DNA from: an uncultured Rhodobacter sp.
Lineage (GTDB): Bacteria; Pseudomonadota; Alphaproteobacteria; Rhodobacterales; Rhodobacteraceae
Length of the DNA: 64,000 nucleotides
Direction: 5' to 3'
NCBI GenBank assembly: GCA_965201085.1
Contig: CBDAVS010000005.1
Location: 30,967-94,966, forward strand
Below are positions 12,736-58,720 of the stretch, piece by piece. The notes under the pieces were generated by a model, which was not told the origin of the DNA, searched no databases, and was given only the letters and a program-made list of their open reading frames with translations. Numbering within the stretch: position 1 is the stretch's first letter; the number at the start of each line of letters is the position of its first letter. The translations under genes and the position numbers were made by a program.

Positions 12736-13039
12736 AAATATTCCTCGATGGTCCATCTTCTTTCGTACCGCCTGACGGTGTCGACGGCGCTCTGGAGATC
12801 GGGCCGCGCGTCGCTGGAGAGCGGCGGCCACGACAGCCGCCGCCCGCCCTTCGGCGGCGTGGTGGTCCCGCTGGCGAGCACGGCGGTGACCGGCAGGGTC
12901 CGGCGGCTCTTTCCCGGGGCCTTCAGCTCCACGCGGGCGACGCGGATCTCCGTCTCCGCGGTCCGCGCCGGGCGGGCCCTCACCGCTTTCCGCCCACGCG
13001 ACCCGGTGATCCCGCCGCGCGCCGCGACGCGGACGGTGC

Positions 13040-19584: not shown

Positions 19585-20158
19585 CCCAGCCCCGCTTCAT
19601 GCTCCAAGGTTCATCACATTACCGGCGTTCCACCGGATCATCAAGCGGTTTCCTGAAAAAGCGCTCGGCAGGCTGCGGCGGAAGATGGCCCCGTCCGCGG
19701 TGTCCGGAAAGCGATCCATTGATAAAAAAGGGGAAAATCCCCGCCACGCCGCTCCCGGGACGCGCCTCCCGCCCTGCGGACATCCGGCCCAGGCGGCCGC
19801 GCGGAACGGGGCCTTCTTCCGCCGCGGCGACCTGGGCCGCGCGCAGTCGTCGAGAGGTGATTCGGAAGCGCATGGGGACGCGCGCCGAAGGTCCGGTCCC
19901 AGGCGCCTCGGGCATCATGCCGGCGGGTTCGCCGGACGCCGCGGCGGCGGATAGACGATGGCCACACGATCCGGCATTTCGGAGAGCGTCATGCGAGAGG
20001 ACGTTATGAACCTGACCGTCGGATGCGACGGGCGGGCGCGGCGCAGTCTGGCGCTGGCGCGACTGTGGGTCCATTCCGGTCGGTCCGCCGTAAGAAGATT
20101 TTCGGATCGGGTTTCAGCATACTGCAGGGCTCAGTTAGAAGAGGTCGGCGCTGGCGAG

Positions 20159-20711
20159 CTGGAAGCCTCTGAAAGCCCGGCCTTTCCGCACGTGTCCCGA
20201 TTCGTTGGATCCGGGAGGAACCGGAGATGCGCGGCCCCGGTTCTTCCGGTCTCCCGGATCATCCCCGCCGCCCGCCCGGACACGCGGGTGGTCTCCGTCC
20301 GCGACCGGGAAGGCGACCTGCGGGACCTCCTCTCCGGGGCCGACCTTCACGGCGACGCTCTCTCTGTCAGGGCGGGCCGCCCGGCGAAGCGGCGGAGTGC
20401 CTGTGGGACCATGTCGCCGCGCCGCACCGGCAGCTCCTGACCACGGAGCGTCCGGCGGAGGGGGAGGCCGACGCCGTGTTCGCCGCGACGGTTCTGGACC
20501 GGTACCTCAGCCGCCGGACGGTCAGGCACCCGACATCCGGACATCCGTCATCGACCCGGGGCACCCCGTCGGCTCGCATCCGAACCCGCAGCCGCCGGGG
20601 CGAAGAATGTCCGGCAGGGGCCCGGGCGGCTGACCCGGGCCATCCAGGTCGTGACGCCCTCGGAAAGCGGAGACGGGAATGGGATAGTGCATAGGTGTGG
20701 GACTTTGTAAG
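20159..20711 (+). mobile_element. Internally deleted Tn5-like IS remnant
   Basis: It starts with the ctggaagcctc terminal module shared with 2046 (reverse complement). It then reads ...PAARPDTRVVSVRDREGDLRDLLSGADLHGDALSVRAGRPAKRR (second DDE Asp, DREGD box) and ...LLTTERPAEGEADAVFAATVLDRY. It jumps directly to ...DIRTSVIDPGHPVGSHPNP and ends ...ggtgtgggactttgtaag. The same terminus is seen, reverse-complemented, at 57633. Confidence 0.6.
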
Positions 20712-20719
20712 ACGCAGAC

Positions 20720-42319: not shown

Positions 42320-42328
42320 CCGTTTTAA

Positions 42329-43286
42329 GAGTTTGAATCATAAGTCACTGATATCATTAAACTATTGTTTTTCATGGAGTTGACGCCCTCGCCACCCGCC
42401 TGAGCAGGAACCGGCAGGCGGCCAGCTGCGCCCATGCCAGCGAGTTCTCGCTGAGCCTTTCGTAATCTTTCGACAGGCGGCGGCACCGGCCCATCCAGGC
42501 GAAGGTCCGCTCCACCACCCAGCGGCGGTAGAGAACAGTGAACCCTTTGACATTCTTCGGTTTTTCGACGATCCTGATCACGTTCGACAACCCCATCCCC
42601 TCAAGCCGCTCCCGCAGCTTCGGACCCGCGTAGCCACCGTCGGCGAACAGCCTACACACCGTGGGCACCGTCTCCAGCAGCTTCGCGATCAGGTCCGGCG
42701 CCCCGTCCCGGTCCTGGATGTCGGCGGTGTGAACCGTCATGACGATCGGTGTGCCGTCGGCGTCCACGATCAGGTGCCTTTTCCTCCCCTTCACCTTCTT
42801 CCCGGCGTCGTAGCCGCGGGGCCCGCCGCTCTCCGTGGTCTTCACCGACTGGCTGTCGATCGAGGCGGCGGTCGGCTCCGCGGAGCGCCCCGAACACCGC
42901 CGCGCGAGGTCCCGGAGACGATGCACGAGACGCTCCAGGAGCCCGCTCCGCCGCCATGCGTAAAAATAGTTCTGGACGGTGGAAAACGGTGGATATCCAG
43001 AGGGTAACGCGCGCCACTGGCATCCCGTGGACAGGATATACTGGACCGCGTCGAACACCGACCGAAGGTCGACCTCGCGCGGCCGTCCCATCCTTCCCTG
43101 CTTCGGCAGCATCGGCTCGATGATGGTCCATTCGGCGTCGGTCAGATCGTTTTGACTGTGGTCGTCCGGGCGCTTATGGATCTGTTGGGTGGTCCTGTTC
43201 CAGGGCATGGCTCTCTCCGTATTTGGTTGCGTTCACCAACCGGAATGCCACATCCTGCGGGACCACTCAACTTATGGAACAAACTC
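42329..43286 (-). mobile_element. IS5-family (IS427-group-like) element, copy 1 (958 bp), with target duplication TAA
   Basis: The inverted repeats are gagtttgaatcataagt (42329) and the reverse complement of the right end, gagtttgttccataagt (43286). TAA occurs at 42326-42328 and 43287-43289. Confidence 0.85.
42372..43208 (-). CDS. IS5-family transposase (278 aa, single ORF)
   Basis: ...DLTDAEWTIIEPMLPKQGRMGRPREVDLRSVFDAVQYILSTGCQWRALP...KGRKRHLIVDADGTPI...LFADGGYAG...YRRWVVERTFAWMGRCRRLSKDYERL. Confidence 0.9.
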   Translation of the reverse strand: MPWNRTTQQIHKRPDDHSQNDLTDAEWTIIEPMLPKQGRMGRPREVDLRSVFDAVQYILSTGCQWRALPSGYPPFSTVQNYFYAWRRSGLLERLVHRLRDLARRCSGRSAEPTAASIDSQSVKTTESGGPRGYDAGKKVKGRKRHLIVDADGTPIVMTVHTADIQDRDGAPDLIAKLLETVPTVCRLFADGGYAGPKLRERLEGMGLSNVIRIVEKPKNVKGFTVLYRRWVVERTFAWMGRCRRLSKDYERLSENSLAWAQLAACRFLLRRVARASTP

Positions 43287-43322
43287 TAAGTCTGTTCGAC
43301 ACCATCGCAATCCTCGGAAGGC

Positions 43323-43925: not shown

Positions 43926-46900
43926 TCACTCTTCAAGCGCGGGCGGCAACGCGCCCAGGATTTCCGAGGTCCGGACGCTCAGGTACACAATCCGCTTTAT
44001 CACCGAAACGAGGTCCTGCGGTCTGCCGAACCATGCGTTCGGGTCATTCACGATACCGCTGTTCCTGTCGGTGGTGATTTTGTAGCGGTCGATGAACCAG
44101 CCGAGCGGCGTCCTGCCGTTGACCTCGTAACCGTGCGCCTCGGGCGGTATCCCCGCGAGACTGACGCTGTCGTTGACGATCAGGACGGACCTGTCCGGGT
44201 TCGCCCCTTTACCCGCGAATTTCATGGCCTTCGCGGTCAGGCGGCAATCATGCGGCTGGGGATCTCCCGGGCCGGAGAAGCGAAGTTCCAGCGGATACTC
44301 CTCGCATCTTTCGTATCCGGTGTGCAGTTCGGCCAGTTTGAGGCCCGCTTCGGCGAAGGTCGTGAAGTCCCGTGCCAGCGGGACCGCCGGAAGCTCCCTG
44401 GCGAGCGCGTTCGGGAACGCCCGCCTGAAATCCGTGGCGTGGAGAACGCCGTAGACGTAGTGGAAGATGTCATCCTTCGTGATGGCGGGGTTCCCGTAAC
44501 GCTCCCGGAAACGCGCCAGCGCGCCGTCGGTGATGTTGTCGACCTTCCTGAGCGGTGGATCCAGACCGGGAAGGCCGGCCCGGTGATCGGGTCGTTCGTA
44601 CCGATGGCGGGGGAAGCACTGGCCGAACGACAGCAAATGGAGGTCCGGTATGCGATCCACCATGAGCGCGGAGAACGGCTTGGTCGAGCCGATCCCGGTA
44701 ACGCAGATCGCAAGGTTCGGGGTTTCGGGATAAGGAAAGATCTGATGCTGCTGGTATCTACGGGCGATCAAACGGTATTCAACGAAGCAATTCATTGGGA
44801 CGAATGGACGGTAGCAGACAGGTCGAACATTCTCGTTACTGAATGGAATCTCCATTTTTCGAATCAGGTTGGTGCATAGACCTTCGTCCCAGCGAAGATG
44901 TCGGCTGTAACGCTCCGTGAGCCGCTCCAGTCCCTGCGGTGCTCCAAGTTCCTTAAGTTCATTCAGGGCGTCAGTGTAGTTCCTGATCGCCCTTCTGGCG
45001 TTGGTCGCGCAGGCATCCCGTGAGTAGTTGTACAGATAGGCGTCACGACCGGTCTTCATGCCGTTGCTGAACAGCTGGAACACCGTAACGCCCGCATCTG
45101 TCCTCTTCGCCTTAGCCTCCTTGGAGCCGAGGGGCAGCAACCGTCCGTAGCCATCCTCCCGCTTCCCGATCCAGCCGTGATGGGCGTCCGGCTCGATCAT
45201 TCGCCAATCCGCGATCCCGGTGATCGACTGCGCCCCGGCGACGATCTCTAGCTTCCGCTCCCTCGTGAGACAGTCTCCGATGTCGTGATAGAGGATGCGA
45301 CACCCGATGTGTTCCGCCTTCGGGTTCTTGACCAGGAAGAAGACGCTGACCGGAGCGCGGGAACCGCTGCCGAACACTTTGCCGCCCTCCCGCCTGGAAA
45401 GCTCTCCGGAAGTGCGTTGGTTCCCCCTCAGATTGACCACATGGACCGAGGTGAACTCCTCCGCCAGACAGGCGCGGATGCCTGAATCTGCGTTCCCGTC
45501 CAGCCAGGAGCCGTTGGTGACGAAGCCGATCACGCCGCTGTCTCCGATGCGGTCGGAGGCCCAGCGGATTGCCATCTTGTAGCTGTCGTACAGAGAGTTC
45601 CTGTTGGTGCTCGACGAACGCTCCGCATAGGTCTCTGTGACGCGGCTCCTCAGCTTCGGATAGTCCGCTTCCGACTGGCCCACATTCCAGGGGGGATTGC
45701 CGACGATCACCCTTATGTCGGCGTTCATCTGCGCGGTGCGGCGCTCCGAATTCTCCTTCAGCAGATCGGCGATCATATCCTCCCGGTCACGGTCCATCCG
45801 GAAGGTGTCGGTAAGGCAGATCCTCTCGAACGCCCTGTTCTCTCCGGTCACACCCGCATAGGCCTCCTGGATGTTCACCGAGGCGATGTAGTAGGCGAGC
45901 AGCACGATCTCGTTGGCGTGGATCTCACCGCCGAATTTACGCCGCAGCGCGTCCGCGTCGATGATCCCGGACTGGACAAGGCGCGCGATGAAGGTCCCCG
46001 TTCCGGTGAACGGATCGAGGATGTGAACCCCTTCGTCGGCCATCGATCCGCTGAACTCCGTCCCCATGATGTGCTCCACCGAACGCAGGATGAAATCCAC
46101 GATCTCCACCGGCGTGTAGACGATGCCCAACGCCTTGCTGGTCTCCGGGAAGGCGTTGCGGAAGAACTTGTCGTAAAGCTCGGAGATGATCCTCTGTCGC
46201 GCTTTGGTGTCACCCGCCGCCGCCTCGACGCGCCGTTCGACGGAGCGGTAGAACTCTTCCAGCCCTTCGGTCTCGGCTTTCCTCGCTGGTTCTATGACCT
46301 TGAGGAAATCGTCGAGTGCCTGACCTACAGGGCTCTGGGTGAGAAAACCGTCGCCCGAACCATCCCCGCGGAACAACGCGTTGAAGACCGGCAGCGTGAC
46401 CGCATGCTGGGCCAGCATCTCGATCGCCTGTTCCTTCGTGATGGACGGGTTGATGTCGTCGCGCAGCTCCTCCAGGAAGTCGTCGAACATGCCGGCGGCC
46501 GTCTCGACATCACCGTCGCGTCCGTCCCGCTTGGGGGTGACCATCGCCGTGATGCGGACGATATGCCTGCGGGCGATGTCGGCCACGTCACCGGCCCAGT
46601 CCTCCCAGTATTTTCTGTTGCCGCATCTCTCGACCAGCCTAGCCTGGATCGCGGCGGTCAGCTGAAGGTCCCAGGCGTCATGCGTAACCGGTGGCGTTTC
46701 GGGATCGGGATCGGGTGCCGGCGGATCGCCGCGCTCCCCGAGACCGGTGAACTGCGAAACGGTGATGATCGAGAGCTTTCCGATCACCCCGGTCTCCTCG
46801 AAGAGGTTGATCTGCGCCTCGAACCCGGGGTCGTGCGAGCGGATGGCGTTGACCATCTGCCAGACCTTTTTCCACTGGTCACTGTCCTCGAACAGCCGGT

Positions 46901-48713
46901 CCACGTCCTTCCCCTCCGGGATCACGACCGGAAGGATCACGTAGCCGACCTGTTTCCCCTCCGCCTTTCGCATGACCCGCCCGACAGCCTGGACGACCTC
47001 GATCTGGCTCTTCCTCGGCTGCATGAAGAGAAGCGCGTCGAGGGCCGGGACGTCGACGCCTTCGGCGAGGCAGCGCGCGTTCGTCACCACGCGGCATTCC
47101 CGCGCCCCCGGCCGTTCCAGCCAGTCGAGGATCTCCGATCTGCGCTCGGCGTTGTAGGTGCCGTCCACGTGCCTTGCGGGAGTGGCGAGGGTGTCGCCGC
47201 TTTCCGAACCGTCGAACAGCCGCTCCACCTGCTCCGACGCCCTGATCGAGGAGCAGAACGCGATGGCGCTTCTCATCGGGCGGTGGTCGGATTCCGGGAA
47301 GCTCTCCGGACTGGCCTTGGCGAGCGCCTGCCGGCAGCCCAGCATGAGACCGGCGTCCTCCAGCTTCAGCTGCGCACGGTCGGCGTCGCCGAAGCGGCCC
47401 AGCTCCTTCGCCGCGACGTCCTCCGGCACGGTGAGGATCACCACACGGTAATCCGAGAGCAGCCCTGCCTCAAGGGCCCGGTGGAAGTCGAAATCGACCA
47501 GCGTCTCGCCGAACAGGTCGGTGTCGTCCATGGAACCGAGGGTGACGGACCGCCGTCCGGCCTTCCTCTTCGCGGCCTCGCTCCATATCTTCGGCGTCGC
47601 GGTCATGTAGAGCCGCCGGTCGGTCTGGATGAGAGCGTCGTCATGGATCATCGTGAAGGCCGAATCCGCGCCGTCCCCGGCGATGCCCGCCGTCCGGTGC
47701 GCCTCGTCGCAGACGGCCAGGTCGAAACGCGGAAGCCCGTGATCCCCCTGCGCGGCGGCGATGGCCGCGCTCGACTGGTAGGTGGCGAAGACGACGGTCA
47801 TCCCGCCGTACGGTTTCGACGCGGCCTCCGCGAGGCGTCCGGCGTCGGTTGTGGCCGGCACCGCGAGATCCGAAGGCGGCAGGTCGATCCGGTCGTCCTG
47901 GCGGAGCCTGCGGCCCGTCCGGGTGTCCGAGCAGACAGCGAACAGCCGCATGTCGCAGGTCCTGTCGCGGACCCAGGCGCTGATCGTCTGCGACATCAGG
48001 GCGAGGGACGGGACAAGGTAGAGGACACGGCCACCTTTGCCCGCGAGGCTCTCGGCCGCCCGCAGCGAGGTCAGGGTCTTGCCGGTGCCGCAGGCCATCA
48101 GCGCCTTGCCGCGTGATCCGGGATCCGCGAGACCCTCGATTATGTTCGCCACCGCCTCGGTCTGGTGCGGGCGCAGCCGCGGAGGCTCCGGCGGCGCCGT
48201 GGTCTCGCCGGTGTCGAACCAGACGCTCCAGTCGATGTGGGATTCCAGCAGACCGTGCCGTCCCAGGCGCCTGATCGGCGGGTCGACCTCGTCAAGGCGC
48301 CGTTCGGCGTTGGCGGACCATTCACGCCCGGAGGTCTCGATCAGGATGCGGGCGCCGAATTCAGGCCGGTTCGATTTCGCCACGAAGCTGTCGATCTCGT
48401 GCTGCGCTATCATGCCGCCCCTACGGCGGAACTTGCACTGGATGGCGGCGAAGCGACCGCTACCGTCATTCAGGTCGGCGACGAGATCGATGCCTGTGTC
48501 GTTCTCCTTCAGGCCCCGCTCCCGCGCCCATGTGGCGTAGGGGCGGGGGTTCGATATCTGGTTCGTCTCGACCGGATCGTTCGAGAGGTGGACCACGCAG
48601 AGCCGCTCGAAGGCGTCGCCCACCTCCCGGCTCCGGTCGCCGGAAACCCCGGCCCATTCATCCAGCTTCGCTTTCAGCGCCTCCGCGCCGGGTTTCGCCT
48701 GTGAGGATTCCAT
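43926..48713 (-). CDS. Type ISP restriction-modification enzyme (Mrr-like nuclease, SF2 helicase-like ATPase, N6-adenine methyltransferase and target-recognition domain), 1595 aa
   Basis: The probable start is ATG 48713 (MESSQAKPG...). The nuclease motif is TGIDLVADLNDGSGRFAAIQCKF. The helicase motifs are I (MACGTGKT), II (VCDEAHRT), III (MTATP) and VI (QAVGRVMR). The MTase motifs are I (ILDPFTGTGTF) and IV (VIVGNPPWN). The C-terminal part has ...VCYRPFVPMNCFVEYRLIARR... as in LlaGI/LlaBIII-type enzymes. Confidence 0.85.
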   Translation of the reverse strand: MESSQAKPGAEALKAKLDEWAGVSGDRSREVGDAFERLCVVHLSNDPVETNQISNPRPYATWARERGLKENDTGIDLVADLNDGSGRFAAIQCKFRRRGGMIAQHEIDSFVAKSNRPEFGARILIETSGREWSANAERRLDEVDPPIRRLGRHGLLESHIDWSVWFDTGETTAPPEPPRLRPHQTEAVANIIEGLADPGSRGKALMACGTGKTLTSLRAAESLAGKGGRVLYLVPSLALMSQTISAWVRDRTCDMRLFAVCSDTRTGRRLRQDDRIDLPPSDLAVPATTDAGRLAEAASKPYGGMTVVFATYQSSAAIAAAQGDHGLPRFDLAVCDEAHRTAGIAGDGADSAFTMIHDDALIQTDRRLYMTATPKIWSEAAKRKAGRRSVTLGSMDDTDLFGETLVDFDFHRALEAGLLSDYRVVILTVPEDVAAKELGRFGDADRAQLKLEDAGLMLGCRQALAKASPESFPESDHRPMRSAIAFCSSIRASEQVERLFDGSESGDTLATPARHVDGTYNAERRSEILDWLERPGARECRVVTNARCLAEGVDVPALDALLFMQPRKSQIEVVQAVGRVMRKAEGKQVGYVILPVVIPEGKDVDRLFEDSDQWKKVWQMVNAIRSHDPGFEAQINLFEETGVIGKLSIITVSQFTGLGERGDPPAPDPDPETPPVTHDAWDLQLTAAIQARLVERCGNRKYWEDWAGDVADIARRHIVRITAMVTPKRDGRDGDVETAAGMFDDFLEELRDDINPSITKEQAIEMLAQHAVTLPVFNALFRGDGSGDGFLTQSPVGQALDDFLKVIEPARKAETEGLEEFYRSVERRVEAAAGDTKARQRIISELYDKFFRNAFPETSKALGIVYTPVEIVDFILRSVEHIMGTEFSGSMADEGVHILDPFTGTGTFIARLVQSGIIDADALRRKFGGEIHANEIVLLAYYIASVNIQEAYAGVTGENRAFERICLTDTFRMDRDREDMIADLLKENSERRTAQMNADIRVIVGNPPWNVGQSEADYPKLRSRVTETYAERSSSTNRNSLYDSYKMAIRWASDRIGDSGVIGFVTNGSWLDGNADSGIRACLAEEFTSVHVVNLRGNQRTSGELSRREGGKVFGSGSRAPVSVFFLVKNPKAEHIGCRILYHDIGDCLTRERKLEIVAGAQSITGIADWRMIEPDAHHGWIGKREDGYGRLLPLGSKEAKAKRTDAGVTVFQLFSNGMKTGRDAYLYNYSRDACATNARRAIRNYTDALNELKELGAPQGLERLTERYSRHLRWDEGLCTNLIRKMEIPFSNENVRPVCYRPFVPMNCFVEYRLIARRYQQHQIFPYPETPNLAICVTGIGSTKPFSALMVDRIPDLHLLSFGQCFPRHRYERPDHRAGLPGLDPPLRKVDNITDGALARFRERYGNPAITKDDIFHYVYGVLHATDFRRAFPNALARELPAVPLARDFTTFAEAGLKLAELHTGYERCEEYPLELRFSGPGDPQPHDCRLTAKAMKFAGKGANPDRSVLIVNDSVSLAGIPPEAHGYEVNGRTPLGWFIDRYKITTDRNSGIVNDPNAWFGRPQDLVSVIKRIVYLSVRTSEILGALPPALEE

Positions 48714-49039
48714 GCCGCGCTTCCCGATATCCGTTCCGCCGGACGACTGAGTAACGTCTGCCGGCGCATCCCGCAATGATCGGGTGCCGCCGGCGGCGCG
48801 GGCGGTATTCGCGGGGCACAGGCGGTCCGCGGTATACGCTCCCGCCGCGCCCGTCGACCATGACACACGCTGACTGCGCCGAGCCGGCGGGACGGCCTCT
48901 CGGTTCACCGTATGTTCCGGCCTACCGCGCCCTTTTCCACCCCTCGGCCCCGGTCACATCCGCTGGCGGCGACACATTGCGCGGCGGTGGGCTTTCCGCT
49001 ATGGATGCATGTATCCCGCTGACGCCAGGGAGGTGATCG

Positions 49040-50323
49040 ATGGATCCGGATCTCGATGGTCTGAGAAGGTTCGCCGGAGGCGGGGACCGGGACAGAACCC
49101 CGTTCTTCACCGGCCGTTCGGCGCAGATCGACGCGATGGAGGAGACCTGTGAACGGGCGCTGGAGGGCTTCTCCGAAGGCCAGCCCGAAACGGGCGCCAC
49201 CCATCTCATCCAGGGAGCGCCCGGAGCCGGCAAGACGGCGCTCCTGCACGAGCTGTCCAGGCGCTGGACCGAGCGCGGCGCAGGGGCGCCTCTCCCCCTC
49301 TTCATGGAATTCGACACCCTTTACAGAAAGGAATCGCTCGTGCTGGAGATCGCCGAGGCGGTGGACCCGAAGGCCGCGGAACGGCTGCGGAGCACGACGG
49401 TGACGCATATACGCGGCGGCGTGAGCCACTTCGTGGACGCCGGAATGTCGCGGGAGACCTCGACCGCGCCGGAAGCGGCGGCCCTGAAGTTCCTGAAGAG
49501 GGCCGTTCCGGCCGATGGGTGGACACAGACCGTGTGCCTCATCGTGGACGAGATCCAGACGGTGGACAGGGGCAGGGCGAAGGCCGCACTCGTCGCCCTG
49601 CACCAGAACGTCGCTGACCTTCCGCTGGTGCAGGTCTACGCCGGCCTCGGCGACTCCCATGACGTCCTGAGGGAGGAGGGCCTGACGCGGCTGAACCCCG
49701 GGATGGTCCACGACATCGGCGCCCTTCCCGGGCGGGAGGCCGAGGAGGCGGTCGAAAGCATGCTGGACGGGTTCCGGGTTTCCCGCAGGGATGACGGGGT
49801 AGGGTGGCCGGAATATCTCGCCGGACTTTCCGAGGGCTGGCCGCAGCACCTGAACAGCGGCATGCGGGCGCTTGCGGCGGAGCTGCGGGAGACGGGCGGG
49901 AGGCTCGCGGACGTCAATGTGGCCTGCGTATGGGACCGCCAGCGTGCATTACGGGAGGACACCTACGGGTGGCGCCTGACGGACGGGATGCGCGATGCCA
50001 GATGTCTCGTCGCCGAGGTGATGCGGGCGGTGCCGGAGGCAGGCCTGGCGGGGTCCACGATCAAGAAACACATCAGGAACCTGACCCGCCCTCTCGACCA
50101 TCCGGAATGCGACGGCTGGCATCTGCCCAGGGACAGGGACGATGGGTGGTTCCTGAGGCACCTGGTGCACCAGGGGGCGCTTCAGCGAAAAGGCCCCACA
50201 CACTACCACTGCCCGATTCCCACCTTCCGGGAATACCTGATGAGGCTGGGCGGACTTCAGCCTGATCGGGCGGACCGACCCGAACGGGTGCGCGGCATGT
50301 CCATCGGCATCGAACCGATGTGA
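49040..50323 (+). CDS. P-loop ATPase (ORC/Cdc6- or archaeal-ATPase-like AAA) with a C-terminal winged-helix-like region, 427 aa
   Basis: A strong RBS (gggaggtga) is present. FFTGRSAQIDAMEE..., Walker A (IQGAPGAGKTALLHELSRRW) and Walker B (VCLIVDEIQTV) follow, and the C-terminal part reads ...WFLRHLVHQGALQRKGPTHYHCPIPTFREYLM. The gene is divergent from the Type ISP gene. Confidence 0.75.
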   Translation: MDPDLDGLRRFAGGGDRDRTPFFTGRSAQIDAMEETCERALEGFSEGQPETGATHLIQGAPGAGKTALLHELSRRWTERGAGAPLPLFMEFDTLYRKESLVLEIAEAVDPKAAERLRSTTVTHIRGGVSHFVDAGMSRETSTAPEAAALKFLKRAVPADGWTQTVCLIVDEIQTVDRGRAKAALVALHQNVADLPLVQVYAGLGDSHDVLREEGLTRLNPGMVHDIGALPGREAEEAVESMLDGFRVSRRDDGVGWPEYLAGLSEGWPQHLNSGMRALAAELRETGGRLADVNVACVWDRQRALREDTYGWRLTDGMRDARCLVAEVMRAVPEAGLAGSTIKKHIRNLTRPLDHPECDGWHLPRDRDDGWFLRHLVHQGALQRKGPTHYHCPIPTFREYLMRLGGLQPDRADRPERVRGMSIGIEPM

Positions 50324-51809: not shown

Positions 51810-52223
51810 CTGATCCGGGCGGAGGAGAGGACGCTCCGGGAAGGAGCCTACGACGACCGCCGCTCAGGCGTGATTCGCGATGCCAGGTATCTTGTCGCGG
51901 AACTGATGCGGGAGGTTCCGGGGGAAGGCATGGTGGAATCCACCGTTCTGAACCGGATCAGGAACCTGTCCCGACCGCTGGACCGTCCGGACAGCGAGGG
52001 CTGGCATCTTCCCAAAGGCAGGGACGAGGAGTGGTTCCTTGACCATCTGGTCCACCGGGGGGTCCTGCAGCTGAACGCGGAGGGACTGCATTCCTGTCCG
52101 ATACCGAATTTCCGGACCCACCTGATGGTCAGGGGCGGGCTGGTTCCGGAGCACCCGCCACAGAGGGAGGCCGCGCCCGAACTGACCCGAACGGAACGCG
52201 GAAGGGGCATCGAAATTACGTGA
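51810..52223 (+). pseudogene. C-terminal fragment of a second ATPase paralogue
   Basis: ...RAEERTLREGAYDDRRSGVIRDARYLVAELMREVPGEGMVESTVLNRIRNLSRPLDRPDSEGWHLPKGRDEEWFLDHLVHRGVLQLNAEGLHSCPIPNFRTHLM... aligns with residues ~300-400 of the 49040 protein, at roughly 60% identity by eye. Confidence 0.7.
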
Positions 52224-52394: not shown

Positions 52395-53300
52395 ATGATC
52401 TCCATCCTTAGCCCGCGCGAACCGGACACGGACGGTCCCGATCTGGACGGTCTGGAGGAATTCGCGAAAAGGGGAGACCGGCGGAGTGCGCGGTTCTTCG
52501 TGGGGCGCGCCGATCTGATCGATCTGGTCGAAGGCGCCTGCGCCATCGCGAAGAAGGCGTTCAAGGATGGTGAGAGTTTCGAAGGCGCGACGCTGCTGCT
52601 GCAGGGAGCGCCGGGCGCCGGCAAGACGGCGCTCCTCACCGAGCTCAGGCAGCGCTGGGAGAAGGCCGGCGGGACCGCTCCGACCGCCGTGAAGATACGG
52701 CCCGCCCATCTCGAGGATCCGGCCGAGGTCGCGGGGAGGGTCGCGGAGGCCGTCAGTCCCGGCTCGAGCGGGGAATGGCGCACGGAGCGGTTCTGGGAAG
52801 TCAGCGCGGAGGCCAGGGCCTTCGGGTCCGGCGGCGGCGGACGGAAGGGGCGCTCCGTCCCGCCCGCGACCGCCACCCTCGACGCGCTCAGGGAGAGGCT
52901 GCCTCCCTTCAGGTGGAAGCGTCCCTTCTGCCTCATGGTGGACGAGATACAGGGTGTCTGGTCGGAGGCGGAGCAAAAGGTCAGGCCGAAAGCGGCGGAC
53001 ACGCTGCTCGCGCTTCACGACGAGGCGCTGGGGCTGCCCATCGTGCCGCTCTACGCGGGCCTCGGCGATTCGCACGACATCCTGAGTAAGGCGAACCTGA
53101 CGCGGCTGACCACAGGATATGTCCGTAGTCTCGGGGCGCTCACCGGGGAGGAGGCCGAGGAGGCGGTCGACAGGATGCTGAAGGAGTTCCGGGTTTCCCG
53201 CAGGGATGACGGCGTCGGCTGGCCGAAATATCTCGCCGGACTTTCCGACGGCTGGCCGCAGGCATGCGCGCCCTGGCGAAGGGGCTGCGTGCGGCGGGCG
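52395..53300 (+). pseudogene. Third ATPase paralogue, with a 13-nt deletion and 3' truncation by an IS fragment
   Basis: An RBS (gggagag) precedes ATG 52395, followed by Walker A (LQGAPGAGKTALLTELRQRW) and Walker B (FCLMVDEIQGV). Relative to copy 1 the sequence cacctgaacagcg is missing after GWPQ (~53258). Homology stops at gggaggctcg near 53300. Confidence 0.75.
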
Positions 53301-53570
53301 GGAGGCTCGTGATGCGGTTCTAGGATATGCCGCATGGTCCCCCGGGGTTCGAAAGCGGGCGGTAGGCGGCTTTCCGGCCCGCCCCGGCGGGAAAGATCAC
53401 CGGCAGGTCCTTCAGCCATGCCTGGCCGATGTCAACGATGCGGTGCCTTACGCTTCCGTCGTGGAGTCCGGCGAGCGTCCCCACCGGACGGCGATCCATG
53501 TGGTGGAGCGCCTCCCGGAAGTGGACCCCGCCGGGGTCCAGCCCGCGCCGCGATGGCTGCCTCTCTGTCA
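53301..53570 (-). pseudogene. Tn5-like transposase N-terminal fragment
   Basis: The minus strand reads ...FREALHHMDRRPVGTLAGLHDGSVRHRIVDIGQAWLKDLPVIFPAGAGRKAAYRPLSNPG..TMRHILEPHHE. It is homologous to 10660-10950. Confidence 0.6.
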
Positions 53571-53942
53571 CAGACCCGGAACTAAATCCAGAAACCACTG
53601 CCAGGCACCGGTGGCGAAGCTTCCCGCTAGCGCCAGAACCGGCTGAAGCCCATGCACGGAAAGCAGGCCGGTGAGGACGAGCGCACCCGCTGTACCATAT
53701 ATCATGGCAGCGGTGGCCAGGACGCGCAGCGGAATACCCCGGCGGCGCGGGACCGCCGACATCCTCCTGGCGGATCTGGGATTGGGCACGGGCGGAACGG
53801 CCTGGAGATACCGTTCGATCCGGGCGACAGCCCGCGCCGTTTCCGCCACCTCGCCACGAAGCCGCTCAAGCTCTTGGCCCATGTCCGGGTTGCCGGTGGC
53901 AGGCGCGCCCGGATCACAGCCGATACGCGTGCCGTCTGTCAT
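53568..53942 (-). CDS. Small hypothetical membrane protein (124 aa; a predicted coiled segment plus 2 hydrophobic helices)
   Basis: An RBS (ggaaga) lies 6 nt before ATG 53942. The protein contains ...ELERLRGEVAETARAVARIERYL... then VLATAAMIYGTAGALVLTGLL and VLALAGSFATGAWQWFL. The C-terminus abuts the IS fragment and may be altered. Confidence 0.45.
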   Translation of the reverse strand: MTDGTRIGCDPGAPATGNPDMGQELERLRGEVAETARAVARIERYLQAVPPVPNPRSARRMSAVPRRRGIPLRVLATAAMIYGTAGALVLTGLLSVHGLQPVLALAGSFATGAWQWFLDLVPGL

Positions 53943-53944
53943 CG

Positions 53945-54184
53945 TTATCTTCCATGAACGCGTCGTCCGATAGGGACCCGCCGACCTTCGCGTGCCGAGA
54001 GACCCCCGGAGACGCCATCCGCATGTCTGCGGCGCTGTTCAGGACGCGCTCCACTTCCCACCATTCCCCCGCCGCCTCGCAGAGAGCGGCCTTCTACGGA
54101 GTCGTTCCAGGACGGTCCGTCGCCACGATTCGGAAAGACACCCGGTACCGCTCCCTCCCCCGGACTCGCGTTCAGCGGCGCCAT
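53945..54184 (-). pseudogene. Chimeric decayed duplicate of the 55566/55300 gene pair
   Basis: It has the same RBS and start (cggaggacagggcaATG, MAPLNASPGEG...) as the 89-aa gene. After frame breaks it carries ...AAGEWWEVERVLNSAADMRMASPGVSRHAKVGGSLSDDAFME, which matches ...AAGEWWEEERTRNSTAYMRIPSLGDLRYAKVGSALPDDAFMD of the 297-aa gene. Confidence 0.6.
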
Positions 54185-54315
54185 TGCCCTGTCCTCCGAT
54201 CCAGCGCTTGCTTTGGAACACGTGTATCGCCCTCTTTCTTAATCCGCAATCGCAGGCGCTTCGCCGCGGCAGTTGCCATACAGGCTATCTCTGCTCCTGT
54301 CCGTCAAACGAGCGT
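54181..54315. repeat. Direct repeat copy 1 (leader/promoter-like segment including TGTCCGTCAAAC)
   Basis: aatccgcaatcgcaggcgcttcgccgcggcagttgccatacaggctatctctgctcctgtccgtcaaacgagcgt aligns with 55619-55692, and ccattgccctgtcctcc aligns with 55563-55580. Both copies have the same orientation. Confidence 0.8.
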
Positions 54316-54406
54316 CTTGCCTTGACCGTCCTGAGAACGCATGGCGGGCGGGTCGGTCAGGCCTATCAAAGACCTCCGAAACACTTCAGTCAGTCTATCT
54401 CTCCAG

Positions 54407-55300
54407 CTATTCCCAGAGATCTATTCCGGTTCCCCTGACGGCGGCACGTGTTCTGTCCCTATACCTCAGTTCCGTGTCCCTGGCGACGGCGGGGCGTCTG
54501 GCATACGCGTCCCCGCAGAGCCGCGTAAACTCGCTCCTCGCGGTATCGCCGAGTGCCTTTTTCAGGATGAAAACAAGTTCGTTTTCGCCGTCGGGCGCCG
54601 CTTCGCCCCGTCCCACCGAAACCTCAAGGTTCCTGATGAACCTGGTGCATGAATGCCGTACCTTATAGGTTTCATCGGGGGTCCAGTCTTCGGGGACGAC
54701 CGCGCACAGTATGGTTTCCAGCGCGACCTCGGACTCGCTGCGACCTTCCTGCGCCGCAACGGAAATAGTATGTTCGTAGAGGTTACGGATCGATACCGGA
54801 GCCTGAGGATAGCCGAGTCCGGCGAAATGCCTGTCGAGCCGTTTCCTCAGTATGGTCCTGCGGTTCCTGCTCGCCAGGACATCGATTTCATGGACCAGCG
54901 CCTGGGCGTAGATGATCTGGTCATTCGTGTTTTTGTCCATGAACGCGTCATCCGGCAGGGCCGAGCCGACCTTCGCGTACCGCAGGTCACCCAGCGACGG
55001 TATCCGCATATATGCGGTGCTGTTCCGGGTGCGCTCCTCTTCCCACCACTCTCCCGCGGCCTCTCCCGCCGCCATTGCGGCGAAGGCGATCTTCCTGTCA
55101 CTCCACTTTCCGATTTTCCTGCCGAGCGACCTGATTTCCGCCGCGGCGGCGAAAGGCAACTGGTGGACCAGTTCAATATCCACCGTTGGCAGGATCGCGG
55201 GACGTCGTCCGCGTAGTTCCTCCATCACCGAAAGGTACCGCCGCGTCGTGGACTGGCGGATCAGGTTCATGTCGGCGGCGACGGCCTCGGACCCGCTCAT
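54407..55300 (-). CDS. Hypothetical protein (297 aa), no recognised domain
   Basis: This is an intact ORF. Its ATG overlaps the stop of the upstream 89-aa gene (GAATGAGC). The sequence is acidic with Trp-rich patches (AAGEWWEEERTRN). Confidence 0.6.
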   Translation of the reverse strand: MSGSEAVAADMNLIRQSTTRRYLSVMEELRGRRPAILPTVDIELVHQLPFAAAAEIRSLGRKIGKWSDRKIAFAAMAAGEAAGEWWEEERTRNSTAYMRIPSLGDLRYAKVGSALPDDAFMDKNTNDQIIYAQALVHEIDVLASRNRRTILRKRLDRHFAGLGYPQAPVSIRNLYEHTISVAAQEGRSESEVALETILCAVVPEDWTPDETYKVRHSCTRFIRNLEVSVGRGEAAPDGENELVFILKKALGDTARSEFTRLCGDAYARRPAVARDTELRYRDRTRAAVRGTGIDLWE

Positions 55301-55566
55301 TCAACTGCCCGCGCGAGCGCGTCGAGTCGGGCCTCGTCGGCGACCGCCTGCTCGTACAGCTCCCGGTCGCCGGTCCACCAGGCCTCCGCCGCGACCTCGA
55401 AAGGCGAAAGCCCGCCGTATTCCCAGAGAACCTCAAGCGCCGACTCGCAGAGGGCGGCCCTCTCGGGAGTCGTTCCAAGATGGTCCATCACAGCGCCCCG
55501 TACGGAGGCGCGGTATCGCTCCTCGCTCGCCCGTGCGTTTCCCGGGCTGGTTTTAAGCGGCGCCAT
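55297..55566 (-). CDS. Hypothetical small protein (89 aa), first gene of a coupled pair
   Basis: A strong RBS (GGAGGA) lies 9 nt before ATG 55566. The protein is MAPLKTSPGNARASEERYRASVRGAVMDHLGTTPERAALCESALEVLWEYGGLSPFEVAAEAWWTGDRELYEQAVADEARLDALARAVE*. Confidence 0.6.
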   Translation of the reverse strand: MAPLKTSPGNARASEERYRASVRGAVMDHLGTTPERAALCESALEVLWEYGGLSPFEVAAEAWWTGDRELYEQAVADEARLDALARAVE

Positions 55567-55692
55567 TTCCCCTGTCCTCCTATCAGTGATTGACATCCGT
55601 TTAGCGACCCATGCGCCAATCCGCAATCACGGACGCTTTGGCACGACAGTAGCCATACATGCTGCCTCTGCGCCTGTCCGTCAAACGAGCGT
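55563..55692. repeat. Direct repeat copy 2 (see 54181-54315)
   Basis: See the copy 1 entry for the alignment. Confidence 0.8.
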
Positions 55693-55780
55693 ATGGCGGT
55701 CCGCCGGAATACCGTCCGTCAAACAGCGTTGACAACGGGTTTGCGGACATTATGAATGACGGACGGATTTACGGACAGGG
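55670..55780. promoter_or_regulatory. res-like array of recombinase-type half-sites between the orphan gene pair and the serine recombinase gene
   Basis: There are three forward copies: tgtccgtcaaac (55675), ggtccgccggaa (55698) and cgtccgtcaaac (55713). There are three reverse copies: gtttgcggaca (55739), aatgacggacgg (55755) and atttacggacagg (55767). All share (T/C/G)GTCCG. Tn3/gamma-delta resolvase half-sites begin TGTC. Confidence 0.5.
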
Positions 55781-55788
55781 GAACCGGA

Positions 55789-56385
55789 ATGGCATTGATA
55801 GGTTACGCGCGCGTCTCGACGGCGGACCAGGATCCCTCGCTCCAGCTTGACGCGCTGAAGGCGGCGGGGTGCGGGCGGATATTCGAGGACAGGGTGTCCG
55901 GCGCGAAGGACCGGCGTCCGGGACTTGACGGGGCCCTGGCCTGGCTGCGCGAGGGGGACACGCTCGCCGTCTGGCGGCTCGACCGCCTCGGCCGGTCCAT
56001 GCCCCACCTCATCGAGACCGTCCGCCGCCTCGACGGCGCCGGCGTCGGCTTCAGGTCCCTGACCGAGGGCATCGACACCACCACACCGGGCGGCACCCTT
56101 GTGTTCCACATCTTCGGCGCCCTCGCGCAGTTCGAGCGGGACCTGATCCGGGAGCGCACCCGGGCGGGTCTGACGGCCGCCGCTGCCCGGGGACGGAAGG
56201 GGGGACGCAGACCCGTTATGACCAAGGAAAGGCTTGAGAGGGCGGGGAAGCTTATCGACCGGGGGCTGACGGTCCGGGAGGCGGCGGCTCGGATCGGGGT
56301 CGGAAAGACGGCGCTGTACGGGGCGCGCCGCTCCGTTTCCGACGCTGGCGGTGCGAACGGGATGGAGGATAGGCATGAAGGGTGA
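55789..56385 (+). CDS. Serine recombinase (resolvase/invertase family), 198 aa
   Basis: MALIGYARVSTADQDPSLQLDALKAAGCGRIFEDRVSGAKDRRPGLDGAL...GDTLAVWRLDRLGRS...GVGFRSLTEGIDTTTPGGTLVFHIFGALAQFERDLIRERTRAGL... is followed by a C-terminal HTH (LTVREAAARIGVGKTALY). Confidence 0.9.
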   Translation: MALIGYARVSTADQDPSLQLDALKAAGCGRIFEDRVSGAKDRRPGLDGALAWLREGDTLAVWRLDRLGRSMPHLIETVRRLDGAGVGFRSLTEGIDTTTPGGTLVFHIFGALAQFERDLIRERTRAGLTAAAARGRKGGRRPVMTKERLERAGKLIDRGLTVREAAARIGVGKTALYGARRSVSDAGGANGMEDRHEG

Positions 56386-56623
56386 ACGGAACGGTTTTCC
56401 TGATCATTACACGTTTTCTCAACGTTATGGCCACGAACCGTTGCCGGAAGCGATGAAACTCGAGTCGCTCTCCAGGGATCTGCGTCGTGAACTCTGTGAC
56501 GTGTGCATGAGAATATACATTGCGAAATAAGTTCAGCGGTTGTCGGCTACGCCGACATGGATAGTTGGATAAGGAGAGCATTGGGTAGATATCTTGAAAT
56601 ATCCAAAAATGATACCACATCTC
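56375..56623 (+). pseudogene. N-terminal fragment of an AbiJ-NTD4-like (abortive-infection-type) gene
   Basis: MKGERNGFPDHYTFSQRYGHEPLPEAMKLESLSRDLRRELCDVCMRIYIAK* has the FSxRxGxxP...E.L...LRN.LW pattern. A further piece (...IGRYLEISKNDTTSL) lies in another frame. It is cut at 56624 by the IS5 / Tn5-like insertions. Confidence 0.4.
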
Positions 56624-56626
56624 TTA

Positions 56627-57632
56627 GAGTTTGAATCATAAGTCACTGATATGATTAAACTATTGTCTTTCATGGAGTTGACGCCCTCGCCACCCGCCTG
56701 GGCGGGAACCGGCAGGCGGCCAGCGTTCGTTCGTGCCTCACTCACGCCCGGACCGGTGGCGCGTGATGCCTCACCCCGGATGCCGGCGGGTTCCCGCAGA
56801 GGCGCTCATAGTCCTTCGACAGGCGGCGGCACCGGCCCATCCAGGCGAAGGTCCGCTCCACGACCCACCGGCGGCAGGGAACCGTGAACCCTTTGATATC
56901 CTCCGGTCTTTCGACGATCCTGATCACGTCCGACAACCCCATCCCCCCAGGCCGCTCCCGCAGCTTCGGACCCGGGTGGCCACCGTCGGCGAACAGCCTA
57001 CACACCGTGGGCACCGTCTCCAGCAGCTTCGCGATCAGGTCCGGCGCCCCGTCCCGGTCCTGGATGCCGGCGGTGTGAACCGTCATGACGACCGATGTGC
57101 CGTCGGCGTCCACGATCAGGTGCCTTTTCCTCCCCTTCACCCTCTTCCCGGCGTGGTGGCCGCGGGGGCCGCCGCTCTCCGTGGTCCTCACCGACCGGCT
57201 GTCGACCGGGGCGGCGGTCGGCTCCGCGGAGTGCCCCGGATACCGCCGCGCGAGGTCCCGGAGACGATGCGCGATACGCTCCGGGAGCCCGCTCCGCCGC
57301 CATGCGTGAAAATGGTTCCGGTCGGTGGAAAACGGTGGATATCCAGAGGGTGACGCGCGCCACCGGCATTCCGTGGACAGGATATACCGGCCCGCGTCGG
57401 ACACCGACCGAAGGTCGACCCCGCGCGGCCGTCCCATCCTTCCCCGCTTCGGCGGCATCGGCTCGATGACGGTCCATTCGGCGTCGGTCAGGTCGTTTTG
57501 ACTGTGGTCGTCCGGGCGCTCATGGAGCTGTTGGGTGGTCCTGTTCCAGGGCATGGCGATCTCCGTATCCGGGTGCGTTCACCAACCGGAATGCCACATC
57601 CTGCGGGACCACTCAACTTATGGAACAAACTC
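56627..57632 (-). mobile_element. IS5-family element, copy 2 (1006 bp), with target duplication TTA, inserted into the terminus of a Tn5-like IS
   Basis: It has the same inverted repeats as copy 1. TTA occurs at 56624-56626 and 57633-57635. About 50 bp near the transposase 3' end differ from copy 1. Confidence 0.85.
56742..57554 (-). CDS. IS5-family transposase, diverged copy (270 aa) with an altered C-terminus
   Basis: It is collinear with 42372-43208 but has many substitutions (YILSTECRWRASP, DRNHFHAWRRSGLPERIAHRL) and a different tail (...DYERLCGNPPASGVRHHAPPVRA*). Confidence 0.75.
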   Translation of the reverse strand: MPWNRTTQQLHERPDDHSQNDLTDAEWTVIEPMPPKRGRMGRPRGVDLRSVSDAGRYILSTECRWRASPSGYPPFSTDRNHFHAWRRSGLPERIAHRLRDLARRYPGHSAEPTAAPVDSRSVRTTESGGPRGHHAGKRVKGRKRHLIVDADGTSVVMTVHTAGIQDRDGAPDLIAKLLETVPTVCRLFADGGHPGPKLRERPGGMGLSDVIRIVERPEDIKGFTVPCRRWVVERTFAWMGRCRRLSKDYERLCGNPPASGVRHHAPPVRA

Positions 57633-58720
57633 TTACAAAGTCCCACACCTGTACATCATCCCATTCCCGTCTCCGCTTTCCGGGGGCGTCGCGGACCTGG
57701 ATGGCCCGGTTCAGCCTCCCGGGGGCCCGTCGGACCTTTTTCGTCCACGGCGGCGGCCTCCGCGGGTTCGGATGCGGGCCGACGGGGTGCCCCGCGTCGA
57801 TGTCCTCCTCCGGGAAGGCCCCGGTGGCGGGCGTCTCCGGCCGCTCCCGGGCGGGCGCGGTCAGGTCGGAGACCCGGGCCGCGGTCACGGCGTCGAAGGC
57901 GAGGCGTTTTTTCAGGTCATCTGCGGCGCCGGACCCGGCGTCCTGAACCGGATCTCCATCGTCCAGCGCCTGCGGTACCGGTCCGGCACGGTGGCGGCGA
58001 ACACGGCGTCGGCCTCCCTCCTCCGCCGAACGCTCCGTGGTCAGGAGCGGCCGGGGCGGGCGGTGCGCCCCCCACGGGCCCCCGCTCCTCCCGACGCGGG
58101 GACGGTGAGGTCGGTCACGGCGGGGGCGTGCGGCACGGCGACATGGTCCCGCAGGCACTCCGCCGCGCCGTCGGGCCCCGGCACCCGCCGCTTCGCCGGG
58201 CGGCCCGCCCTGACAGGGAGAGCGTCGCCGTGAAGGTCGGCCTCGGAGAGGAAGTCCCGCAGGTCGCCTTCCCGGTCGCGGACGGAGACCACCCGCGTGT
58301 CCGGGCAGGCGGCGGCGGGCTCCCGTGCCCGCGGCGGGCCTTCGATCCAGCGGTGGCCGTCGTCCTCCGGGCCCTCCCCGTGGCCCGCGTCCATCGCGAA
58401 CGGGCCGGGCGGACGACCCTCCCGCTTCCGCCCGCGCGCGGCAGGCCGACCCGTTTGGCCAGGGCGTGCGGCGCCTTCGCCGTTGCCGCTTCGCGTCCTC
58501 CTCCGCGACCGTCGGGACCCGCACCGGCGACATCGCGTCCAGGTCCCCGCATTGGCATCACCCGGACGGATCGCCCGACGCGGGAATCCAGCCCGTGCCG
58601 CTCGCTTCCAGCACCGCGTATGACGTGGTGGCCTTCCCCTCGAAGGGGATGGCCGACCCATTCATCGCCTCTCCCCTTTCGAACGGCAGGGGGGAGAGAT
58701 GGCACCCGCCACCATATGCT
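57633..58720 (-). pseudogene. Tn5-like IS copy with large internal deletions and frameshifts
   Basis: The terminus is cttacaaagtcccacacc. The minus-strand pieces are ...AAKAPHALAKRVGLP (DUF4338-like N-terminus), ...CPDTRVVSVRDREGDLRDFLSEADLHGDALPVRAGRPAKRR, ...AECLRDHVAVPHAPAVTDLTVPASGG, ...AVFAATVPDRYRRRWTMEIRF, ...AADDLKKRLAFDAVTAARVSDLTAPARERPETPATGAFPEEDIDAGHPVGPHPNP. Confidence 0.6.

Follow-up and report, generated by a model that had tools for sequence, protein, structure and literature searches.

We have analysed a window of 64,000 nucleotides from an uncultured Rhodobacter sp. (contig CBDAVS010000005.1 of assembly GCA_965201085.1; unless a locus is named, all coordinates are positions in this whole stretch), and the subject of this work is an unannotated pair of genes that lies beside a serine resolvase gene and its resolution site, res. 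Both genes of the pair are encoded on the minus strand. The small gene (55297..55566; ATG at 55566, stop codon at 55297-55299) encodes a protein of 89 amino acids, the candidate antitoxin or partner, and it is followed by a large gene (54407..55300; ATG at 55298-55300, stop at 54407) for a protein of 297 amino acids, the candidate toxin. The TGA of the small gene and the ATG of the large gene overlap by 4 bp as ATGA, and the junction of the two genes on the minus strand reads GTTGAATGAGC. The Shine-Dalgarno sequence GGAGGA (55575..55580, minus strand) is located 8 nt before the ATG of the small gene, and a GGAGG-type block is kept in the upstream alignments of other loci of the family. An earlier note on this DNA had described two genes that overlap stop-in-start behind a GGAGGA ribosome-binding site, and both the open reading frames (ORFs) and their spacing bear this out: The pair is a genuine, translationally coupled and so far unannotated two-gene module. 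A mechanical list of ORFs had placed the start of the small gene at TTG 55626; this start was rejected since all 32 aligned homologues begin at the column of ATG 55566.

A candidate promoter of the pair (55598..55626, minus strand) is composed of the -35 element TTGCGG (55621-55626) and the -10 element TAAACG (55598-55603), separated by a spacer of 17 nt. The pattern TTGC(G/A/C)(G/C)-N17-TAnnn(T/G) is found upstream of the pair at the loci L001, L002 and L007 of the family as well as in front of both copies in the window (see below), and the sequence that surrounds it cannot be aligned. From this conservation we infer that TTGCGG-N17-TAAACG is the pair's own promoter; a consensus promoter scan did not call it. 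As the module has a promoter of its own near the gene, its expression would be independent of res. A terminator scan detected none near the pair, and Rfam gave no match in the whole window.

With respect to family membership, the pair stands alone, as had been noted before: For both proteins, and also for the remnant ORF and the 124-amino-acid ORF downstream of the pair that are described below, no model of Pfam, NCBIfam, PADLOC or PHROGs passes its threshold. A search of 5.8 billion clustered proteins revealed 11 close relatives of the large protein (46-56% identity), none of which is named or has a Pfam domain. In an exhaustive profile search, the large protein is represented by 141 clusters at E<=1e-3, nearly all of them 280-300 amino acids long, and most of these share chiefly the N-terminal ~160 residues. 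The small protein has 36 relatives with 40-72% identity and lengths of 67-149 amino acids (most of them 84-97), again without a name. No confirmed relative turned up in two scans of metagenome contigs.

The two genes go together. In all 17 close loci that were fetched (about 12 of them distinct), a homologue of the small gene is located directly upstream of the large gene, and the called gene models show the 4-bp overlap in five of six distinct annotated contexts, the call at L007 being ambiguous. Co-oriented, coupled genes that are conserved as a pair at every close locus are what is expected of a type II toxin-antitoxin (TA) system, and the same holds for the patchy, multicopy distribution in the company of mobile elements that we observed. 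The hosts of the close loci are Rhodobacter, Paracoccaceae and unclassified alphaproteobacterial metagenome-assembled genomes (MAGs), and four MAGs carry two copies of the pair each. The neighbours vary from locus to locus and are mostly genes of mobile elements: a DDE transposase at L001, IS110 and, 6.5 kb away, a Tn3 tnpA together with a resolvase at L002, RepC directly upstream of the pair at L003 and L011, IS66 at L006, IS5 fragments at L010, and a DDE fragment at L015. Transposase, RepC or resolvase genes are present within a few kb at no fewer than 9 of about 14 distinct loci (i. e. at least 9). Even the distant family members at L018 and L019, with 24-25% identity to the large protein of the window, are both preceded by a small overlapping ORF. 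L018, moreover, links the family to a serine recombinase a second time and independently of the window. At this locus, a resolvase, an ORF of 95 amino acids, an ORF of 69 amino acids and the PIN-like gene follow each other on a single strand (3987-5879 of L018), and IS21 and ParA adjoin. Serine recombinases are linked to the family in the window, at L002 and at L018, that is at 3 of about 15 distinct loci. Thus, of the linkage to recombinases and mobile elements that had been looked for, the mobile context is indeed recurrent; the linkage to recombinases recurs as well but is not conserved.

What kind of protein does the large gene encode? Its N-terminal part (residues ~1-185, nucleotides 54746-55300, minus strand) is a probable PIN-like nuclease domain, and a helical C-terminal domain follows (residues ~186-297). 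PIN-like domains are built around a five-stranded parallel sheet in an alpha/beta/alpha sandwich, with an invariant Asp on strand 1 and further carboxylates around strand 4 that are supplemented by Ser or Thr; in VapC-like proteins, an additional carboxylate is located on the helix just after strand 2 (PMC5499597). We counted conserved columns across an alignment of 86 family members, and the acidic residues and the Ser/Thr of PIN-like nucleases are conserved across these relatives. D10, in the N-terminal motif hhA-x-D10-T-N-L-L, is present in 84 of the 86 proteins, and E43 of L-P-x-V-x-x-E43 in 76 (with Q in seven others). D127 is found in every one of the 86, in the context D127-x-x-I-h-A-[EQ]-A, and the motif h-h-[S/T]144-x-N146 has S or T at position 144 in 82 proteins and N at position 146 in 78 (D in six). 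Two further residues, the invariant R20 and W85 (80/86), are outside the PIN pattern. Shigella VapC, the sequence of which is identical to that of PDB entry 3TND, has D7, E42, D98 and T114-N-N116, and the spacing is nearly equal: 16 residues from D98 to T114 in VapC and 17 from D127 to S144 in the window protein. Since this verified VapC also has T-N-N at this place, Asn146 is no anomaly.

The predicted structure may point in the same direction. The AlphaFold (AF2) model of the large protein, built on 11 sequences, has a predicted local distance difference test (pLDDT) score of 84.2 and a predicted template modelling (pTM) score of 0.81. In this model, short strands at about residues 7, 35, 98, 140 and 171 alternate with helices, a long helical hairpin (38-89) comes after strand 2, and the C-terminus (~186-297) is separate and all-helical. 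Foldseek against the PDB returned a single coherent match, VapC4 of Pyrococcus (5h4g_A; probability 0.94, template modelling score 0.56 normalised to the target, root-mean-square deviation 6.8), and no match among viral structures. Moreover, PIN is the sole Pfam family that recurs among the relatives (7 of 86, best E 4.2e-5), and ten distant members picked by hand gave marginal matches to PIN and PIN_3 (E 0.09-0.16). Several results weigh against the assignment. The E-value of the VapC4 match is 0.29. The window protein itself has no significant match to a curated profile: Residues 116-148 match Pfam PIN with E 0.17 and 12.9 bits, the cut-off being 23.6. Profiles of 11 and of 86 members, run against the sequences of the PDB, retrieved nothing relevant. 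With hhalign, the family profile reached a probability of 0.4% against the verified VapC alone and of 5% against an alignment of three PIN sequences, in which D127...[ST]xN was paired with D98...TNN; the fetched loci contained no VapC genes for a better profile. In addition, the protein has about twice the size of a VapC toxin. With these points set against the conserved residues and the predicted fold, we still consider it likely that the large protein is PIN-like, probably a PIN-like nuclease with an extra helical C-terminal domain. The search for remote homology and the structure prediction that had been proposed for both proteins suggest, for the protein of 297 amino acids, a probable PIN-like nuclease, as would fit a toxin.

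The small protein is acidic (isoelectric point 4.6, net charge -7), and its AF2 model is a four-helix bundle with a pLDDT of 93.1. Against the idea of a TA module, the model has no structural match in the PDB according to Foldseek, and neither Pfam, NCBIfam and PADLOC nor the model reveal a recognisable DNA-binding or antitoxin fold. Thus, the antitoxin with a recognised fold that autoregulates its operon, as it is seen in type II systems, was not found.

On the other side of the pair's start, a tnpR-like serine resolvase of 198 amino acids (55789..56385, plus strand) is transcribed divergently; it matches PF00239 with E 2.7e-46 and, weakly, HTH_7. The most probable start codon is ATG 55789 (MALIGYARVST); in alignments, this position coincides with the starts annotated for plasmid resolvases. 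The intergenic region between the pair and tnpR comprises 222 bp, and the enrichment of half-sites as well as the alignment to the upstream regions of plasmid resolvases place res at 55675..55777. The half-site TGTCCGTCAAAC is matched at 55675 (12/12, plus strand), 55713 (11/12, plus), 55738 (9/12, minus), 55754 (9/12, minus) and 55766 (10/12, minus), and a weaker inverted partner is present at 55691 (8/12, minus). Five matches of at least 9/12 within the 103 bp of 55675-55777 compare to about 0.08 expected, with 50 such matches on both strands of the 64-kb window. The putative site I (55675-55702) has 28 bp, TGTCCGTCAAACGA|GCGTATGGCGGTCC, a putative site II is located at about 55713-55749, and the proximal half-sites cover 55754-55777; sites II and III run from site I towards tnpR. 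The tnpR promoter is inside res (-35 TTGACA at 55729-55734, spacer of 16 nt, -10 TATGAA at 55751-55756).

The comparison with plasmids supports this arrangement. In blastn searches, the resolvase gene and the 120 bp before it (~55671-56326) have 72-73% nucleotide identity to IncP-1 plasmids such as pMBUI8 (KC170279) and to Xanthomonas plasmids such as pE (NZ_CP021021). TGTCCGTCAAACGA marks the exact start of the similarity, conservation falls on the columns of the half-sites, and the plasmids have AT in the middle of site I, as in classical res sites. Both pMBUI8 and pE have the half-sites at the same positions as the window; they differ from it in the sequence to the left of site I and have no copy of the pair. 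Accordingly, blastn and tblastn against the PLSDB plasmids and phages matched the resolvase/res part only and neither the pair nor the 124-amino-acid ORF. With the catalytic domain, the YARVST serine motif and the inverted half-site array all in place, the intergenic region, judged by its sequence, holds a genuine res site, and the previous description of the pair as a neighbour of the half-site array of a divergent serine recombinase is confirmed by the PF00239 match and the number of half-sites. The ATG of the pair is 109 bp away from the outer edge of site I, divergent from tnpR, and resolvase bound about 50 bp from the promoter of the module could influence the expression of the pair.

Strict pairing, the 4-bp overlap, a patchy multicopy distribution and mobile contexts are typical of TA modules. 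By this analogy, and with the predicted nuclease in mind, the explanation that we favour, and hold to be rather likely, is that the pair is a TA-like stability or defence module in a plasmid- or Tn3-style arrangement. In this scenario, the promoter of the module would give rise to a single transcript, from which first the small acidic protein and then, by coupling at the 4-bp ATGA, the nuclease would be translated. The 297-amino-acid protein would act as a metal-dependent PIN-like nuclease with a putative active site formed by D10, E43, D127 and S144-x-N146, and the acidic four-helix protein of 89 amino acids would be its cognate inhibitor that binds and blocks the PIN-like active site. If the small protein were lost or degraded, the freed nuclease would cleave RNA and arrest growth, and as an outcome, the carrying DNA would be stabilised and/or phage infection aborted. 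In addition to the features of the two proteins mentioned above, two observations speak against this explanation: The small partners at L018 and L019 have no detectable homology to the small protein of the window, and the pair and its proteins are absent from the PLSDB plasmids and the GenBank phages in tblastn searches and have no PADLOC match.

The pair might also serve primarily in anti-phage defence by abortive infection, with a PIN-like effector, a C-terminal domain that senses infection and a small protein that holds the nuclease inactive. The island in which the pair resides contains a Type ISP restriction-modification enzyme and NACHT/AAA_16-like ATPase cassettes, a MmeI-type methylase/restriction gene is present near L019, and the extra C-terminal domain is not explained by a simple VapC model. 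We regard such a primary role in defence as unlikely, given that no PADLOC model matches and that the other loci of the family adjoin replication genes or insertion sequence (IS) elements rather than defence genes; moreover, the mechanism would largely be the one outlined above. Still another idea dispenses with toxicity: The pair could consist of a nuclease or RNA-processing enzyme and a subunit that serves it as chaperone or confers specificity, at work for the element (for instance in the processing of its transcripts) or for the host, or the PIN-like domain could be catalytically inactive. That all evidence for PIN stays below the thresholds, that 78 of 86 relatives have Asn at one of the canonical acidic positions, that the partner lacks an antitoxin-type fold and that the protein is large for a toxin would all agree with this idea. 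However, Shigella VapC also has TNN at the position in question, and strict pairing, the 4-bp overlap, the multicopy patchy distribution and the mobile contexts point to a TA module; we therefore judge a non-toxic pair to be quite improbable.

How does the proposed TA-like module relate to established systems? As in VapBC (Shigella VapC, 3TND; FitAB), a small upstream gene overlaps a downstream PIN-type gene. Both have in common the PIN-type pattern, with hhhhD[TS]N on strand 1, E on the helix that follows strand 2, DxxI(A)xxA, and hh[ST]x[ND] after strand 4, as well as the order of the strands as predicted for the window protein and a patchy, multicopy distribution linked to mobile elements. 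Unlike VapC with its ~130 amino acids, the toxin candidate of the window has 297, with a long helical hairpin that separates strands 2 and 3 and an extra helical C-terminal domain of about 110 amino acids. The partner differs as well: It is a compact acidic four-helix bundle without a ribbon-helix-helix, AbrB, Phd or helix-turn-helix domain. Moreover, the candidate does not reach the threshold of a Pfam PIN model. Thus, the family is unnamed, and it differs from VapBC in the size of the toxin, the extra domain and the fold of the partner.

The plasmid RK2/RP4 provides a precedent for the overall layout. In its par locus, the parCBA resolvase operon is divergent from parDE with res between them, and the locus combines multimer resolution with post-segregational killing; parDE next to the parCBA resolvase stabilises the DNA that carries it. 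In the window, a divergent serine resolvase and a two-gene module likewise flank a region with res and promoters. In contrast to RK2/RP4 par, the proteins are PIN-like and four-helix proteins, which are unrelated to ParE and ParD, there are no equivalents of parB and parC, and the surroundings look chromosomal.

The position of the pair next to res has already been described for other TA families. In the Tn3 family of transposons, 39 of 190 elements carry TA pairs next to res; among these pairs are PIN toxins as well as an antitoxin that lacks a DNA-binding domain (PMC7157771). The arrangement <T <A res tnpR> is documented among them (Lima-Mendez et al. 2020, PMC7157771), which substantiates the earlier statement that TA pairs hold this position in Tn3-family transposons, and it is the arrangement found in the window, where the pair is adjacent to res and tnpR. 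The window differs from these modules in three respects. Neither a tnpA nor terminal repeats of the Tn3 type were detected, and an IS5 element is located in the place of tnpA. The families of both proteins are outside the five toxin and six antitoxin families of that study (PMC7157771). Finally, the module has its own conserved promoter at a distance of about 50 bp from res. No ORF near tnpR encodes a Tn3-type DDE transposase (DUF4158 plus DDE_Tnp_Tn3), and none is annotated in a sister contig of the window, L021. For the Tn3 terminal inverted repeats of ~38 bp (the GGGG...ACGNTAAG type), the pattern GGGG-N24-32-CGNTAAG had no match in the window, a search that divergent repeats would escape. 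The unit of res, tnpR and the pair is therefore regarded as what remains, without a transposase, of a stability region of the plasmid or Tn3 type in an IS-rich chromosomal island.

If the function is confirmed, the pair would define an unnamed TA family of about 140 clusters at 50% identity, nearly all of them with proteins of about 290 amino acids. Such a family would combine a double-sized PIN-like toxin that has an extra domain with an antitoxin that has no DNA-binding fold, and it would thus add to the diversity of PIN toxins and of their regulation. In addition, addiction modules would be seen to accompany res and resolvases not only in complete Tn3-family transposons but also in remnants that have no transposase, within chromosomal islands of Rhodobacterales. 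Current concepts would remain unchanged; the value is in the annotation and in a new family that can be tested.

Directly downstream of the intact pair and on the same strand, the window contains a decayed second copy (53923-54320), as had been claimed. The existence of this copy is established by gapped blastn alignments between the two copies (E 1e-30 and 2e-29) and by tblastn matches of the intact proteins to the remnant (E 1.6e-12 and 3.5e-6). The second leader (54185..54320, minus strand) corresponds to 55567-55697 in blocks of 81-89% identity and keeps the ATG, a -35 element TTGCGG (54244-54249), a -10 element TACACG (54221-54226) and the ribosome-binding site GGAGGA (54192-54197), all on the minus strand. 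It also carries a solitary left half of site I, TGTCCGTCAAAC, at 54298-54309. According to three-frame translation, tblastn and blastn, the decayed gene remnant covers 53923..54184 (minus strand). From the leader into the remnant, the blocks are 54241-54320 against 55618-55697 (83% identity), 54159-54201 against 55541-55584 (81-89%), 54070-54154 against 55438-55522 (75%) and 53944-54078 against 54929-55063 (79%); overall, the two copies share 70-83% identity. Decay has affected the coding remnants more than the expression signals. The remnant of the small gene extends from codon 1 to about codon 45 (54184-54064) rather than over the ~12 codons that had been assumed, and it is interrupted by a frameshift within the first 15 codons, a gap of 15 nt and an in-frame stop (GTTP*KAALCEAA). 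The remnant of the large gene retains codons 80-131 (54078-53923, 80% nucleotide identity) before a frameshift and a stop. Between the two remnants, the equivalent of 55063-55438 (375 bp) has been deleted. The join reads CEAA|GEWWE, and the two genes are similar at this place (CE(S/A)A-LEVLWE versus GEAAGEWWE), which fits a deletion by microhomology. At the protein level, the large-gene remnant is 57.7% identical to its counterpart in the intact local pair, and no other member of the family exceeds 40%; for this reason, the remnant is seen as a pseudogene, derived from a local paralogue or a very close relative that decayed long ago. The direct repeats of ~130 bp do not bound the decayed copy, as had been proposed, but are the two leaders, and they flank the intact pair.

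Where the remnant ends, at about 53923-53944, begins an unrelated ORF of 124 amino acids (53568..53942, minus strand) whose product is basic with a hydrophobic C-terminus; it is called as a gene in L021. No family match, no relatives and no tblastn match in plasmids were obtained for it. Its ATG follows 2 nt after the TAA of a junk ORF of 79 codons that starts at the preserved ribosome-binding site. Thus, this gene, which had been thought to be fused to the remnant as a membrane-protein gene, abuts it (TAA, 2 nt, ATG) and is not fused in frame. It may be expressed from the captured second leader.

The end of the second copy deserves attention. Read in the direction of tnpR, the similarity of the two copies spans the left half-site, runs across the middle of site I (...CCTGTCCGTCAAACGAGCGT) and breaks off at ~54315 (equivalent to ~55692), which is 3-4 nt beyond the midpoint of this 28-bp site. 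On its right side, the junction is followed by 86 bp that are unrelated, and these lead up to the stop codon of the intact large gene. By our own estimate, ~0.6% of random endpoints in a unit of 1.4 kb would come as close as about 4 bp to the midpoint of site I. The exchange of TA modules between Tn3-family elements by recombination at res has been described (PMC7157771). As the endpoint would be rare by chance and such an exchange is documented, we favour an event mediated by the resolvase: A resolvase crossover probably produced the junction, or else a duplication that had its end in res. This is weakened by the fact that the breakpoint in site I is a single junction, in sequences that are 70-83% identical, and defined only to a few bases. 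The alternative, a tandem or segmental duplication of the ordinary type by unequal crossing-over or replication slippage with subsequent decay, in which the coincidence with res would be due to chance and the resolvase would have no role, is a serious contender, although we lean to the other side. The neighbouring AAA_16 cassettes are diverged direct repeats themselves (73-82% identity), and as their copy number differs between the window and L021, the region seems to be prone to unequal recombination. Moreover, accessory sites are missing beyond the junction, and the best candidate for a right half-site (7/12, shifted by 5 bp) is not convincing. It is the proximity of the end to the centre of site I, together with the documented precedent for exchange between elements, that stands against an ordinary duplication.

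The earlier note went further and suggested exchange of cassettes by the recombinase, that is a mobile cassette that the resolvase inserts, excises or exchanges at res, with the direct repeats as active substrates. Serial insertion of circles at site I would be expected to yield the observed order, TA2-leader-(half site I)|tail-TA1-leader-(site I)-II-III-tnpR. However, copy 2 has kept one half-site only and the repeats are at most 83% identical, other loci of the family have no res half-site upstream of the leader, and a serine recombinase is near only 3 of about 15 loci. The low identity of the copies argues for an old event rather than for active exchange. L021, a near-identical contig (98-99%), has the same structure of pair and remnant, and each feature differs at 0-2 positions; the locus is neither excised nor deleted there, and thus no sign of ongoing excision or exchange is seen. 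As L021 represents the same locus at 98.9% identity, it was rejected as independent evidence. With one suggestive junction between diverged copies, the suggestion of cassette exchange is weakened, and we consider an active cassette very improbable. Equally hard to believe is a more specific version, in which the right half-site, tail, TA pair, leader and left half of site I are a cassette captured serially at site I by the resolvase. If this were true, res would be an integron-like acquisition site for addiction modules, and the decayed copy would be the previous occupant, the promoter of which is reused by the neighbouring membrane-protein gene. Under the resolvase-mediated event that we favour, the half-res junction would be a small, clean example of module shuffling; like the possible capture of the leader, it is neat but minor.

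The rest of the window looks chromosomal, with a parE/gyrB-like gene, hydantoinases, and TRAP and ABC transporters. The IS5-family element (56626..57633, minus strand; DDE_Tnp_1, DUF4096), where a Tn3-type tnpA would be expected, begins 240 bp after tnpR. A second IS5 copy with the same orientation but only 88.6% identity is found at 42328-43287, and the two copies bracket the restriction enzyme, the ATPase cassettes, the 124-amino-acid ORF, the remnant, the pair and tnpR, possibly as an island similar to a composite transposon. The Type ISP restriction-modification enzyme (43926-48908, minus strand) looks complete, with Mrr_cat_2, ResIII/helicase, the ISP coupler, N6_Mtase and Type_ISP_C. The AAA_16/NACHT-like ATPase genes (49040-50323 and 52395-53312) belong to diverged direct-repeat cassettes, 73-82% identical and about 3.4 kb apart, with the repeats 49619-49907 against 53034-53309 and 49952-50186 against 51837-52071. 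In L021, three ATPase cassettes (12135-20104) take the place of the two in the window; these sequences point to variation of the cassette copy number by unequal recombination.

Between the tnpR stop and the IS5 element (56386-56625, 240 bp), the sequence is identical in L021, and an AT-rich stretch at ~56530-56680 stands out from the 63-68% GC around it. To the right of IS5, dispersed short repeats with 85-92% identity were detected (57631-57802 against 20549-20712, and 57796-57900 against 13336-13440). Finally, an ORF of 1852 amino acids at 14026-19584 (minus strand), with a GC content of up to 76% and multiple fn3, He_PIG and Calx-beta domains, probably encodes a large surface or adhesin-like protein.

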